Part shown: in pieces, positions 8,201 through 14,857 of the stretch
How the letters are laid out: each line of letters starts with the position of its first letter
Numbering within the stretch: the first letter of the stretch is position 1
DNA from: Eledone cirrhosa
Lineage: Eukaryota
NCBI GenBank assembly: GCA_964016885.1
Contig: OZ024757.1
Location: 12,772,001 to 12,836,000 of the forward strand
Direction: 5' to 3'
Length of the DNA stretch: 64,000 nt
Notes under the pieces: model-generated
The model's input: only the letters and a program-made list of their open reading frames with translations
The model's database searches: none
What the model was told of the DNA's origin: nothing
Position numbers and translations under genes: made by a program

Positions 8201-10088
8201 GTAAGTATGTGTGTATACGTACATACATATATGTATACAGACGTACAGTAGCATGCATATATATATATATATATATATATATATATATATATATATATAT
8301 ATATATATATATATATATATATATATATATATATATATACACATATACATACAGGTACACATACATATATGCGCGTATCAGTTTAGCGAACGCTTATTAT
8401 AACGCCGCTTTGTTCGTTTGTAAACAAACTGAACAGCCTGAATTTTATGCCGTAAGGTGTTAAGGCAACCACGTCACCTTTTTGTTCAACACTGACACAG
8501 GAACGATGTACTAGTTTCAAGCTTGTTAGCTATCATCAGCACCGTATACCCTTCTGTCAGATAGTTGAACGTTCGAAAGTATATACTTTCCTTATGAAAA
8601 TTAACGGCTGAGCAGCCTAATTTGCATATCGAGTGAGTTAAGTCGGTCAGGCATACCGAAAACGATAAGTTGAAATAAAATGAAAACGAAATTTCATTTC
8701 TCACTCTTAGTACGCCACTTACTTAAATGTAAGTATGTGTGTATACGTACATACATATATGTATACAGACGTACAGTAGCATGCATATATATATATATAT
8801 ATATATATATATATATATATATATATATATATATATATATATATATATATATATATATATATATATATATATATATATATATATACATATACATACAGGT
8901 ACACATACATATATGCACGTATCAGTTTAGCGGACGCTTATTATAACGCCGCTTTGTTCGTTTGTAAACAATCTGAACAGCCTGAATTTTATGCCGTACG
9001 GTGTTAAGGCAACCACATCACCTTTTTGTTCAACACTGACACAGGAACGATGTACTAGTTTCAAGCTTGTTAGCTATCATCAGCACCGTATACCCTTCTG
9101 CCAGATAGTTGAACGTTCGAAAGTATATACTTTCCTTATGAAAATTAACGGCTGAGCAGCCTAATTTGCATATCGAGTGAGTTAAGTCGGTCAGGCATAC
9201 CGAAAACGATAAGTTGAAATAAAATGAAAACGAAATTTCATTTCTCACTCTTAGTACGGCACTTACTTAAATGTAAGTCTGTGTGCATACGTACATACAT
9301 ATATGTATACAGACGTACAGTAGCATGCATATATATATATATATATATATATATATATATATATATATATATATATATATATATATATATATATATATAT
9401 ATATATATATATATATATATATATATATATATACATATATGCACGTATCAGTTTAGCGGACGCTTATTATAACGCCGCTTTGTTCGTTTGTAAACAAACT
9501 GAACAGCCTGAATTTTATGCCGTACGGTGTTAAGGCAACCACGTCACCTTTTTGTTCAACACTGACACAGGAACGATGTACTAGTTTCAAGCTTGTTAGC
9601 TATCATCAGCACCGTATACCCTTCTGCCAGATAGTTGAACGTTCGAAAGTATATACTTTCCTTATGAAAATTAACGGCTGAGCAGCCTAATTTGCATATC
9701 GAGTGAGTTAAGTCGGTCAGGCATACCGAAAACGATAAGTTGAAATAAAATGAAAACGAAATTTCATTTCTCACTCTTAGTACGGCACTTACTTAAATGT
9801 AAGTATGTGTGTATACGTACATACATATATGTATACAGACGTACAGTAGCATGCATATATATATATACATATACATACAGGTACACATACATATATGCAC
9901 GTGTCAGTTTAGCGGACGCTTATCATAACGCCGCTTTGTTCGTTTGTAAACAAACTGAACAGCCTGAATTTTATGCCGTACGGTGTTAAGGCAACCACGT
10001 CACCTGTTTGTTCAACACTGACACATTTAAGTAAGTGCCGTACTAAGAGTGAGAAAGGAAATTTCGTTTTCATTTTATTTCAACTTAT
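8201..10088 (-). mobile_element. Tandem HHR-bearing non-coding repeat, family A (retrozyme-like): ~3.5 units of 526-544 bp plus short inverted piece 10024-10088
   Basis: Direct repeats with HHRs at 8503-8545, 9047-9089, 9573-9615; (TA)n flanks. Confidence 0.85.
8503..8545 (-). ncRNA. Type I hammerhead ribozyme, family A (also 9047-9089 and 9573-9615 on -, 14047-14089 and 14513-14555 on +)
   Basis: acggtg-CTGATGA-t-agct aaca agct-t-GAAA-ctag-TA-catcgt; canonical core, GUA site, palindromic stem III. Confidence 0.88.
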
Positions 10089-10347
10089 ATATATATATAT
10101 ATATATGTATATATATATATATATGTATATATATATATGTATATATATATATATGTATATATATATATATGTATATATATATATATGTATATATATATAT
10201 ATATATATATATATATATATTTATATATATATATATATATATATATATATATATATATATATATATATATATATATATGTATATATATATATGTATATAT
10301 ATATATGTATATATATGTATATATATATATGTATATATATATATATA

Positions 10348-11978
10348 ATGGAAAATTTGAACAGAAACAAAACAGAGAGGCAGTACAACGAATGTTTATT
10401 AATTTCACGCTCTGGAGAGTGGGGTGGTGGTGGGGAACGACGTTTCGGGCATAAGCCCTTCCTCAGGTGAGAAGTCTGTGGGAAGAGAGTTCAAAGGGTG
10501 TGTAGGGGAGTGGTGGAGAGACATATAGCTAAAAGGGGGTGGGAGGAAACGGTGCGAATGAAAATAAAAATAAAGCATGATCAAAATAAAATGAAATGAA
10601 ATAAAAATAAATATAAAAGCATGATCAAAATAAACTAAAATTAAAAAGGGGTAAAACAGGTGGTGGAAGGGTGTGGGGTGTGTCGGGGTGGTGGCGGGTG
10701 GAGTGGGGAGAGGGAGACGGGGTGTCTGAGCGGCGAGGGCTGAAGGTGGTGTGTAGGTTTACGTCTGTTTGTGTGTATGTGAAAGCAAGGGTTGGGGGAA
10801 GAACGTGGTTGCATGTTCAGGAAGAGGTGTGTGTGGGGTGGGGTGTAGGTCGGAGTGTGTGTGCGTGTGTGGATAGAGGGGTGGGGGGAGAGGAATCCGG
10901 AGGCTGAAGGTGTAAATATGTGTTGGAAAGCACGTGTGTGTGGGGTTTAAGCATGTTGTGTGTGTAGGTGGCGTGTGGGAGAAAAAATTTTTGGGGTGTG
11001 TGTGTGGGTGAGTTATATAGGTGATTCCGTAAGAGGATATGGTTGAAATGTTGGTAAACTCCTATGATGGTAGTAGATTCCACAGTGGTCAAGTTCCACA
11101 TACGAGTATTCCATGAAGAGATGGTCGGAAGAGGAGAGATGTGGGGTGCGCGCGCAACAGGAAGTGGTCAAGGCGGTGGGAGTGCTGTGTGTCTGTTTGT
11201 GCTGGGAGGTGGTCAGAGGGCATAGCAGCAGTTGGGTGGAATGGTAAAGGGGCGTGGATGGGTAGGTGTGAAAGTTGGAGTGAGGAGGGTGTGTGTGTGT
11301 ATTAGTAGAGGTGTTAGTGGGATGAGTGAGTGTGGAGAAAGGGTGTGGGTGGAGCGGGGAGAGAAGGGTGTGGGGGCCGATGGAGGGAGTGTGGTGTACT
11401 GGTGTGTGTGTAGTTTGATGAAGGGGGTGTTAGTGGGTGTTAGTATATGGGAGGTGGAGAAAGGGTTGAATGCAGGTGTGAGTGGGGGTTAGTGGTGGTA
11501 GGGTGTGTAGAGTTGGTGGTGTACGAGGGTGTGTGGGTACGTGTGCGTGGGGTTGGGGGGTGTTAGTGATGTTAGTTGCGTGTGGGGTGGGTGGGTGGTG
11601 TAAGTGGGTGCGTGTGTTCGTGTGCTTGGGGTCAGGGGGTGTTACTGATGTTAGTTGCGGGGTGGTGGGTTGGAGGTGTGGGGGTGAGGGTTAGTGGTGG
11701 TAGTAGGGTGTGTGTTTCGTGTGAGCGCGTGTATATATGTACCGGTGGGTGTGTGCGTGTGATAAGGAGGAGGGAGGAGAAGAAAGGAGGGATGTTAGTA
11801 TGTTAGTTGGGGAAGGGTGGTCGGATGAGGGGTGGACTGGAGGTGTTAGTATTGTTAGTTGTGGGGTGGCCGGTGAAAAGGAGGGGTGTGTTAGTGGTGT
11901 TAGTGGGGGATGTGTGTGGGGGAGGGGGGCGGTCGAAGGCTAAGGGAATAAGGGTGGGGAGTTCAGGCCGGGGGGGAG
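10348..11978 (-). mobile_element. Non-coding, strongly strand-skewed PLE-related element or 3' UTR with terminal HHR
   Basis: Between (TA)n tracts; HHR near the 3' end; no recognisable coding domain. Confidence 0.55.
10436..10470 (-). ncRNA. Minimal PLE-type hammerhead ribozyme
   Basis: ac-CTGAGGA-a-gggc ttat gccc-GAAA-cg-TC-gt. Confidence 0.75.
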
Positions 11979-12004
11979 TATATATATATATATATATATA
12001 TATA

Positions 12005-12409
12005 TATATGAAAGACGTAAAATAAGAAAATTATAAAAATTTACTTACTTCCTAAAATTTCACTCTAACTAATTAGTTTCTGAAATGGAATAAACATGGT
12101 TTCCGATTGGAACAACATGGAGAAATGTCCTTTCGTCATCAGGGAGATCTGTTCTCAGCTAAGTTCCCTGGAATCTAGTCCTCGCTTGCTTTTTTCCATC
12201 CACTGAATTATTTTTATATAAGTTCCCTGTGTCCACGCTTTGCCTGGGAACTTAGCTGAGAACAGATCTCCCTGATGACGATAGGACATTTCTCCATGTT
12301 GTTCCAATCGGAAACCATGTTTATTCCCTTTCAGAAACTAATTAGTTGGAGTGAAATTTTAGTAAGTAAGTAAATTTTTATAATTTTCTTATTTTACGTC
12401 TTTCATATA
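12005..12409. mobile_element. Small inverted-repeat element (arms ~12005-12168 / 12246-12409), HHR in each arm
   Basis: HHR 12268-12351 (+) and 12063-12146 (-): ctcc-CTGATGA-c-ga(a/t)agg...cctttc-a-GAAA-ctaattag-TT-ggag. Confidence 0.7.
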
Positions 12410-13373: not shown

Positions 13374-13396
13374 ATATATATATATATACACATATA

Positions 13397-13633
13397 TTTG
13401 GATTTAATGCTCTGAAATAGCGATATATATGTGAAGATAAACACAGAATATTCGAAAATATTCCGTATGTTTATAATAAACATTTTGAAGACCTAATCGC
13501 TATAGAATAGAATACGTCACGTATTACAATTTGAGATTCCCGATAAAAGCAAGGGAAGTAACCTACGCGTTTCATTCTTATTAGAAATCATCAGGATTAC
13601 ATATCCAATGCTTTTATCGAGAATGACACAGCT
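13397..13633 (-). mobile_element. Diverged partial monomer of HHR repeat family B (HHR 13558-13600)
   Basis: Aligns by eye to the 312-bp unit at 15901-16847. Confidence 0.8.
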
Positions 13634-13645
13634 TATATATACATA

Positions 13646-14857
13646 AAGGTGACGTGGTTGCCTTAACACCGTATGGCATAAATTCAGGCTGTTCAGTTTG
13701 TTTACAAACGAACAAAGCGACGTTAGCGCCGCTAAACTGATACGTGCATATATGTATGTGTACCTGTATGCATATGTATGTATATATGTATATATATATA
13801 TATATGTGCATGCTACTGTACGTCTGTATACATATATGTATGTACGTATACATGCATACTTACATTTAAGTAAGTGCCATACTAAGAGTGAGAAATGAAA
13901 TTTCGTTTTCATTTTGTTTCAATTTATCGTTTTCGGTATGCCTGACCGATTTAACTCACTCAATATGCAAATTAGGCTGCTCAGCCGTTAATTTTCATAA
14001 GGAAAGTATATACTTTCGAACGTTCAACTATCTGGCAGATGGGTAAACGGTGCTGATGATAGCTAACAAGCTTGAAACTAGTACATCGTTCCTGTGTCAG
14101 TGTTGAACAAAAAGGTGACGTGGTTGCCTTAACACCGTATGGCATAAATTCAGGCTGTTCAGTTTGTTTACAAACGAACAAAGCGACGTTAGCGCCGCTA
14201 AACTGATACGTGCATATATGTATGTGTACCTGTATGCATATGTATGTATATATGTATATATATATATATATGTGCATGCTACTGTACGTCTGTATACATA
14301 TATGTATGTACGTATACATGCATACTTACATTTAAGTAAGTGCCATACTAAGAGTGAGAAATGAAATTTCGTTTTCATTTTGTTTCAATTTATCGTTTTC
14401 GGTATGCCTGACCGATTTAACTCACTCAATATGCAAATTAGGCTGCTCAGCCGTTAATTTTCATAAGGAAAGTATATACTTTCGAACGTTCAACTATCTG
14501 GCAGATGGGTAAACGGTGCTGATGATAGCTAACAAGCTTGAAACTAGTACATCGTTCCTGTGTCAGTGTTGAACAAAAAGGTGACGTGGTTGCCTTAACA
14601 CCGTATGGCATAAATTCAGGCTGTTCAGTTTGTTTACAAACGAACAAAGCGACGTTAGCGCCGCTAAACTGATACGTGCATATATGTATGTGTACCTGTA
14701 TGCATATGTATGTATATATGTATATATATATATATGTGCATGCTACTGTACGTCTGTATACATATATGTATGTACGTATACATGCATACTTACATTTAAG
14801 TAAGTGCCATACTAAGAGTGAGAAATGAAATTTCGTTTTCATTTTGTTTCAATTTAT
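13646..14857 (+). mobile_element. Second array of HHR repeat family A (~2.6 units, 466-bp period)
   Basis: HHRs at 14047-14089 and 14513-14555; ends in (TA)n. Confidence 0.85.

Follow-up and report, generated by a model that had tools for sequence, protein, structure and literature searches.

Hammerhead-bearing tandem arrays in AT microsatellites of Eledone cirrhosa: probable Penelope-like copies of a small RNA circle

The 64-kb stretch of the Eledone cirrhosa genome considered here (the window; G000:C18:12772001-12836000 of a 3.0-Gb assembly) contains two tandem arrays of a hammerhead-bearing repeat, family A, within a series of nested elements that were inserted in (AT)n and fill bases 600-17000. 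Family A is a new family of animal retrozymes of the type without long terminal repeats (non-LTR retrozymes) and a non-autonomous Penelope-like element (PLE), both young and abundant. It was very probably inserted by a PLE-type mechanism. The arrays are copies of this non-coding repeat in AT microsatellites, probably placed there by a borrowed Penelope-like reverse transcriptase (RT) that is likely to have often copied a small RNA circle for several laps; the circle is also likely to have been a frequent template, and a minority of templates were probably cut linear RNAs or multimers. A broader proposal, which we favour with less assurance, is that the genome holds a fossil record of rolling-circle reverse transcription, in which single RNA circles, monomers and dimers of the hammerhead unit that had been edited by ADAR or trimmed at their ends, were copied for up to 15 laps by a Penelope-like enzyme, primed from both (AT)n strands at two fixed positions inside the unit, the edits feeding the evolution of the element.

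How animal hammerhead repeats re-enter the genome, and what role PLE hammerheads play, are questions that go back to the newt satellite. Neither the kind of element nor its length is new, and the value of family A lies in making a long-assumed copying step directly testable. The family combines a template of known length (466 nt) with mapped start sites, two in number, with a target and with the fossil marks of single RNA molecules, so that this step can be reconstituted and counted genome-wide. If the proposal is true, RNA edits are written into germ-line DNA.

Insertion anatomy and the hammerhead of family A

With +1 denoting the base after the predicted hammerhead cut, insertion 1 (array 1) consists of two arms joined 5' to 5', with three bases common to both. 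Its long arm (8200..10025, minus strand) has its 5' end at unit +10, crosses three predicted cut sites and has its 3' end in (AT)n at the short site B, at +246 to +251, where an AT overlap makes the exact base ambiguous. Its short inverted arm (10023..10088, plus strand; 66 nt, +245 to +310) has its 3' end at the long site A, again in (AT)n, and the (AT)n target lies at 7674..8199 on the left and 10089..10347 on the right. Insertion 2 (array 2) is a single arm (13645..14857, plus strand) that begins at +28, includes two predicted cut sites and ends in (AT)n at site A (+310), with the right-hand target at 14858..14911. It adjoins an arm of another hammerhead family (13371-13633), an 11-nt AT spacer lying between, and belongs to the commonest and youngest subfamily of family A. 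The first-pass annotation of the window had reported five hammerheads in two arrays of a retrozyme-like element, and this stands, with CTGATGA cores starting at 14053 and 14519 on the plus strand and at 9609, 9083 and 8539 on the minus strand. It had placed the first array wholly on the minus strand at 8201-10088, whereas bases 10023-10088 belong to the plus strand; the second array begins at 13645.

The same two ends define the family in a sample of 99 loci on contig C1, obtained from 100 matches among 1,345 to a +310-end pattern. Among their 196 arms, 101 end at +303..312 (site A), 75 at +243..252 (site B, about 63 nt from A) and 20 elsewhere. The 80 inverted 5'-to-5' pairs comprise 64 of A with B, none of A with A, one of B with B and 15 with a broken arm. 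Because these loci were selected by an A end, only the partner arm is tested; loci selected by the ribozyme instead gave the same two 3' ends, with one B+B case. The genome contains 1,345 A-type ends and 3,246 B-type ends, the B pattern also matching older subfamilies, and family A was present in sequencing-run contigs as well (4 of 6 listed runs examined); none of the listed runs is recorded as RNA. Where both 5' ends of an A+B junction lie in unique sequence, 24 of 32 junctions have 1-7 bases in common. No LTR was found at the ends mapped in the 99 loci, no separate search for a primer-binding site or polypurine tract being made.

PLEs are recognised by a one-ended tail, an inverted and truncated copy and a bias to (TA)n targets (PMC8557442). 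Their tail has been explained by two RT start sites inside the RNA, cleavage and extension taking place on both DNA strands (PMC11167929). The two fixed 3' ends, the one-ended tail, the inverted arms and the (AT)n target of family A therefore point to a PLE enzyme. The two 3' ends and inverted arms had been missed in the first-pass annotation, and it is these that tie family A to PLEs. Twin priming on one linear RNA, hinted at by array 1, in which one arm begins where the other ends, was rejected in that arms overlap freely and both may hold many units. Nor do we favour reading array 2 and the adjoining arm of the other hammerhead family (family B) as one chimera, both arms having the long end, against the rule of one long and one short. 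Two junctions with the PLE of 600-4815 (L032 and L082) are explicable as nested insertions.

A full unit from cut to cut (14084..14549, plus strand) is 466 nt long with 36% GC. Its longest sense open reading frame (ORF) has 48 aa and its longest antisense ORF 112 aa of low complexity, none being credible, and the ORF check found no RT or GIY-YIG ORF in the unit. The monomer RNA has a predicted minimum free energy of -156 kcal/mol (z -7.8). The unit includes a long predicted AT-rich hairpin (14201..14323, plus strand; about +118 to +240), followed by the "tail" (14330..14393, plus strand), which extends from site B (+247) to site A (+310), the two points where reverse transcription would start. 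The unit size given earlier, 466-544 bp, is right as to the 466 nt; the spacings of 526 and 544 nt in array 1 arose because the internal AT microsatellite expanded, the tract at 9329..9440 making its unit 526 nt and that at 8785..8895 making its unit 544 nt. AT runs of 104 and 100 nt underlie these spacings, and the units minus their longest run measure 422-450 nt. Nor does the monomer exceed known animal retrozymes in length, as had been suggested: with consensus lengths of 51-972 bp on record (Li, Clavereau and Pollet 2026, bioRxiv 10.64898/2026.07.22.740005), 466 nt is an ordinary size, and part of it is microsatellite.

Near-full units compared without the low-complexity block diverge by 0.3% within array 2 and by 1.1-2.0% within array 1, as against 3.9-5.5% between the arrays. 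The units are, as first described, homogeneous within and different between arrays, and the diagnostic differences quoted at that time are real. The haplotype of array 2 is that of the commonest subfamily, found at 37 of 58 typed loci, and locus L051 is fixed for every one of the 11 substitutions that characterise array 1. The differences are accordingly subfamily markers, and the window alone gives two subfamilies, not two single templates. The earlier proposal of one template per array, copied by RT going round a circle, does not follow from them, and draws its support from other loci (L151, L058, L102 and unit lengths; see below).

Hammerheads 1, 2 and 3 lie on the minus strand at 9572..9616 (helix I to helix I), 9046..9090 and 8502..8546, with predicted cuts 3' of 9579, 9053 and 8509; hammerheads 4 and 5 lie on the plus strand at 14046..14090 and 14512..14556, with predicted cuts 3' of 14083 and 14549. 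All are of type I, and hammerhead 4 comprises a 7-bp helix I, CUGAUGA, a U-U pair, a 4-bp helix II with an AACA loop, GAAA, a palindromic ACUAGU helix III and a GUA site. An Rfam scan of the window gave no match at the gathering score, and the hammerhead call is therefore based on motif, pairing and covariation. That the motif is not a chance occurrence is indicated by the 10,122 exact copies of the 40-nt ribozyme stretch on both strands of the genome, compared with none for the reversed control; older subfamilies with CTGACGA come on top of these. In the energy model helix III could not close in a monomer, a 2-nt loop being disallowed, and the ACUAGU self-duplex is predicted at -4.8 kcal/mol. 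By its sequence, the ribozyme appears to be the dimer-dependent type I form described by Cervera and de la Pena (2014, PMC4209133), minus the G10.1-C11.1 pair.

In 350 segments from 111 loci, where a variant common to four or more loci was taken as inherited, none of the 11 core sites has an inherited variant, while position 7 (T/C) and loop II do vary; private mutations are spread evenly over all parts of the unit. A sister family nested in L058 is identical at 171 of 242 aligned bases (71%) and keeps the core, the AACA loop and the palindrome, and its helices I and II have different base pairs with pairing retained. The core without inherited variants and the covariation in the sister family suggest that the ribozyme is under selection. 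The refuting outcome named in the first-pass annotation, a core conserved no better than the remaining unit, was not obtained. The sister family (L058:2990-4420; G000:C1, about 96096400-96097800) lies inside the internal (AT)n of family A; its 71% identity falls around the start sites and the ribozyme, and the octamer-bearing hairpin is kept.

Laps round the template and probable marks of single RNA molecules

Read-through of the predicted cut sites was counted in 176 clean arms, 20 broken arms being left out. An internal start on a cut linear monomer would stop arms at +1; instead, 89 of the 108 arms reaching +45 cross the first cut site, and later sites are crossed in 44/48, 30/30 and 59/64 cases, giving 0-15 sites crossed per arm, the longest arm crossing 15. 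On the first pass there is a mild excess of 5' ends at +1..45 (19/87 vs 10 expected, p=0.005); on later passes no excess occurs near cut sites (9/89, p=0.26), and none of the clean arms has its 5' end at +1..3. The 231 junctions between units comprise 205 that equal the reference, 21 with substitutions only, five with one common deletion and none with added bases, leaving 226 free of insertions or deletions.

Units of one arm differ on average by 0.31%, those in separate arms of a locus by 0.60% and those of different loci by 1.77% (median 0.88%), and long arrays are frequently without any mutation. Clustering of units by array, proposed in the first-pass annotation as a check, is weak, the nearest neighbours of 180 units lying in their own locus in 44 cases and in another locus in 33, with 103 ties.

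Marks that appear to derive from individual RNA molecules were found at other loci. Locus L151 (G000:C1:160404500-160412500) holds 11 full units in strict alternation of two types. Compared with their subfamily, one type carries 13 changes and the other 4; read on the ribozyme strand, every change is A>G, and most lie inside the AT-rich hairpin. Thirteen of these 17 changes follow T and none follows G, a pattern that fits the neighbour preference of ADAR. Both arms start in unit type 2, with 0 and 1 differences from type 2 and 11 and 14 from type 1. Taken together, the alternation, the phase and the restriction to A>G point to one edited two-unit RNA, which would have been copied about six times in phase. 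At L058, three A>G changes that lie in a hairpin within a stretch of 8 nt are present in 3/3 units and nowhere else in the assembly. At L102, a 7-nt deletion, placeable so as to end at the cut site, is present at 5/5 junctions and nowhere else in the assembly; L160 has the only other deletion there, in one of its two junctions, and this too may be placed to end at the cut. A general enrichment of deletions at the cut site was not seen, with 2 events vs 6 in a control stretch.

In a survey of rare variants covering 121 loci, from which 10 were dropped for containing nested insertions or more than one insertion, A>G made up 11 of 33 locus-fixed rare variants vs 15 of 216 single-unit variants (p=8e-5), and 15 loci have a rare fixed variant common to opposite arms. 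Unit length was compared in the subfamily with variant 327A, in 10 loci with at least three listed matches (singles, one pair and the last, incomplete locus excluded). It lies within 2 nt of the median of its own locus in 61 of 71 units vs 46% in shuffles, although one of the 71 lengths (444) is an artefact of two matches put on the wrong arm, that locus having 478 in both arms; the arms agree in unit length in 6/6 loci. Arrays of the 327A subfamily (471 units; G000:C1, C2) often have 7-17 units, much longer than the family average, and look as if this variant were copied more processively.

Proposed course of copying, rival templates and related elements

Under the proposed mechanism, arrays would be transcribed, as the A>G scars suggest, and neighbouring hammerheads are predicted to pair via ACUAGU and cut at GUA. 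Monomers, and sometimes dimers, may then be ligated into circles, as demonstrated for other animal retrozymes. A PLE protein, the presumed enzyme, would nick both (AT)n strands, and cDNA would start inside the RNA at +310 on one strand and at about +247 on the other, the ends that are observed. Each cDNA would make a variable number of laps, matching the observed range of cut sites crossed, and two cDNAs joined over a few common bases would give the inverted arms. Point mutation, AT expansion and nested insertions, all observed for array 1, would then age the arrays. The 3.5-kb head-to-tail runs of an autonomous PLE may arise likewise.

A number of observations weigh against this reading. The arrays in the window lack any private marker, and variant 327A, once considered a private mark, has 471 copies genome-wide and is a subfamily marker. 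Locus L151 was chosen for its alternating spacing (482/484) as one of 12 arrays fetched, and 5 of its 17 changes lie inside a slippage-prone AT core and are less sure. Among fixed variants the ratio of A>G to T>C is just 11:4 (p=0.05), two of the 11 being counted twice, and in 3 of the 60 loci whose arms overlap, a fixed site differs between the two arms. In the 99-locus sample, 12 arrays contain at least four full units, and two of these are mixed. L044 has an ordered three-unit pattern, repeated in both arms, and L157 changes unit type midway, patterns that would fit multimers or template switching. A comparison with the PLEs of the window and with 30 loci from a single PLE family found no pseudo-LTR homology to an autonomous PLE. 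The first pair of helix II is U-U in place of the conserved G10.1-C11.1 pair, and within the family core plus helices do not differ significantly in conservation from the rest of the unit (4/39 vs 50/286 sites, p=0.18). Furthermore, uncut RNA was the dominant substrate of PAc, the sole PLE tested in vitro (PMC11167929), and 8/9 Xenopus retrozyme dimers did not cleave (bioRxiv 10.64898/2026.07.22.740005).

Several of these points favour a template in the form of a long uncut read-through transcript, inserted by a PLE while the hammerhead is slow or idle, with homogeneity inherited from the parent array. Besides the PAc substrate, the mixed arrays L044 and L157 and the atypical U-U pair, this account is helped by the fact that most arrays merely have the subfamily sequence and that the autonomous PLE likewise occurs in 3.5-kb head-to-tail runs. 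Since editing acts per molecule and per site, however, a linear multimer is not expected to repeat 17 A>G changes with period two, nor the L058 triple in three units; nowhere in the assembly is there a parent array that bears the mark of L058 or of L102, and the lack of a 5'-end excess near later cut sites also counts against it. We regard an uncut template as unlikely. Small odds also attach to a cut linear monomer or dimer on which the RT jumps repeatedly from the 5' end to its own 3' end, with no covalent circle, although it accounts equally well for all the single-molecule scars and would fit both the first-pass excess of 5' ends at +1..45 and the template switch in L157. RT jumps usually add or lose bases, as in R2 and group II intron RTs, whereas 226 of the 231 junctions are seamless, and the remaining five, all in one array, repeat an identical deletion. 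The absence of 5' ends at +1..3 speaks against jumping as well, and in other animal retrozymes the RNA is mainly circular (PMC7229834).

Expansion or homogenisation of short PLE-type insertions at the DNA level, by unequal crossing-over, slippage or extrachromosomal DNA circles, has been proposed for retrozyme tandems (Li et al. 2026, bioRxiv 10.64898/2026.07.22.740005). Internal AT runs clearly alter after insertion, and a few variants are confined to some units of an array. This explanation is nonetheless very improbable for family A: opposite arms agree in unit length and in rare variants at the 6 and 15 loci noted above, long arrays are often free of mutation, and out-of-register exchange is not expected to give a run of 11 units in which two types, 97% identical, strictly alternate. 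Repeated copying of a small RNA circle is the account that we favour over all three.

Family A resembles animal non-LTR retrozymes (PMC7229834; bioRxiv 10.64898/2026.07.22.740005) in its dispersed tandem units with one type I hammerhead each, GC content under 45%, lack of ORFs and LTRs, thousands of copies in mostly short arrays, and the presence of PLEs in the same genome. For family A, cleavage and circles are predicted. Both papers propose rolling-circle copying by PLEs and leave the mechanism for later proof; in their available parts, two fixed 3' ends, inverted arm pairs and editing scars are not mapped. A literature search, from which most subscription papers were out of reach, found no work on retrozymes of cephalopods, nor any on traces of RNA editing within retrozyme arrays.

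With the PLEs that encode an endonuclease (EN+; PAc Poseidon, PMC11167929; Neptune, Nematis, Hydra and Naiad, PMC8557442), family A shares two internal starts downstream of the hammerhead cut, a one-ended tail, an inverted 5'-truncated copy, tandem copies and AT-rich or (TA)n targets. Target-site duplications are not visible in family A because (AT)n hides them. Unlike these elements it lacks an RT or GIY-YIG ORF, reaches 15 units per arm and has a tail of about 63 nt vs 30-40 bp; its starts lie 247 and 310 nt past the cut, compared with roughly 85-90 nt for the main PAc site. The 1-2 bp helix III, palindromic loop and expected dimer action are as in PLE hammerheads (PMC4209133), in contrast to the U-U that replaces G10.1-C11.1; the 7-bp helix I and 4-bp helix II differ from the minimal PLE form and are as in canonical metazoan type I ribozymes. 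MRC1 and other Chlamys elements (PMC8557442) are likewise non-autonomous, PLE-type and found in multicopy head-to-tail insertions, but they are algal, mostly without a canonical hammerhead, and similar at their 3' end to their autonomous families.

An snRNA-type (small nuclear RNA) promoter was also considered and is not supported: family A has an octamer at unit +348, but none occurs within 300 nt upstream in 8/8 U1 genes examined. Newt satellite 2-type units carry an snRNA promoter made of the octamer plus a proximal sequence element, and the pDo500 unit is reportedly about 500 bp long. The U1 genes of this genome (L163-L172), which have no octamer within that distance, share other motifs near -55 and -250.

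Other elements of the window

Several PLEs and PLE-related insertions surround the arrays. The ORF at 1884-3836 has no Pfam match and a weak match (E=2e-4) to the protein of the ORF at 6002-7390, which contains RT plus GIY-YIG; from motifs, anatomy and this match it appears to be PLE-like. It occurs in at least 68 near-identical copies, 66 of the 68 scored being without a stop, and its PLE has the same two-end anatomy as family A with no unique sequence in common. The corresponding PLE-like element (600-4815) is a young autonomous family with a 784-aa open frame; shortly upstream of the ORF lie its two 3' ends, separated by about 80 nt. Several copies are arranged head to tail, 3-4 units at a spacing of about 3.53 kb (G000:C1:437200678-437213199, C2:51276689-51285673 and C1:91474377-91486932), and a motif scan found no canonical hammerhead in it. 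The second PLE (5195-7672; RT, GIY-YIG) has a tail of about 41 nt, and its ends are inverted; a related 3' fragment lies at 21121-21708.

The second hammerhead family, at 15628-16848 and 13371-13633, has a unit of 310-312 nt with a GUA site, an AACA loop and a U-U before helix II, and shows the same two-arm anatomy with a tail of about 40 nt. The stretch just past its cut resembles the motif about 250 nt upstream of U1 genes, which may be chance. Further inverted-repeat fragments inserted in (AT)n, at 12005-12409, 12853-13373, 12420-12800 and 14910-15000, have relatives beside family A loci elsewhere and probably represent other non-autonomous PLE families. The stretch at 10348-11978 comprises a PLE-type terminal repeat, a minimal hammerhead at 10466 (minus strand) and a long, strongly skewed C/A-rich stretch. 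C2H2 zinc-finger arrays that repeat every 84 bp, together with 56 copies of a 60-bp satellite, occupy 36001-37065, 59256-59464 and 54098-57462.

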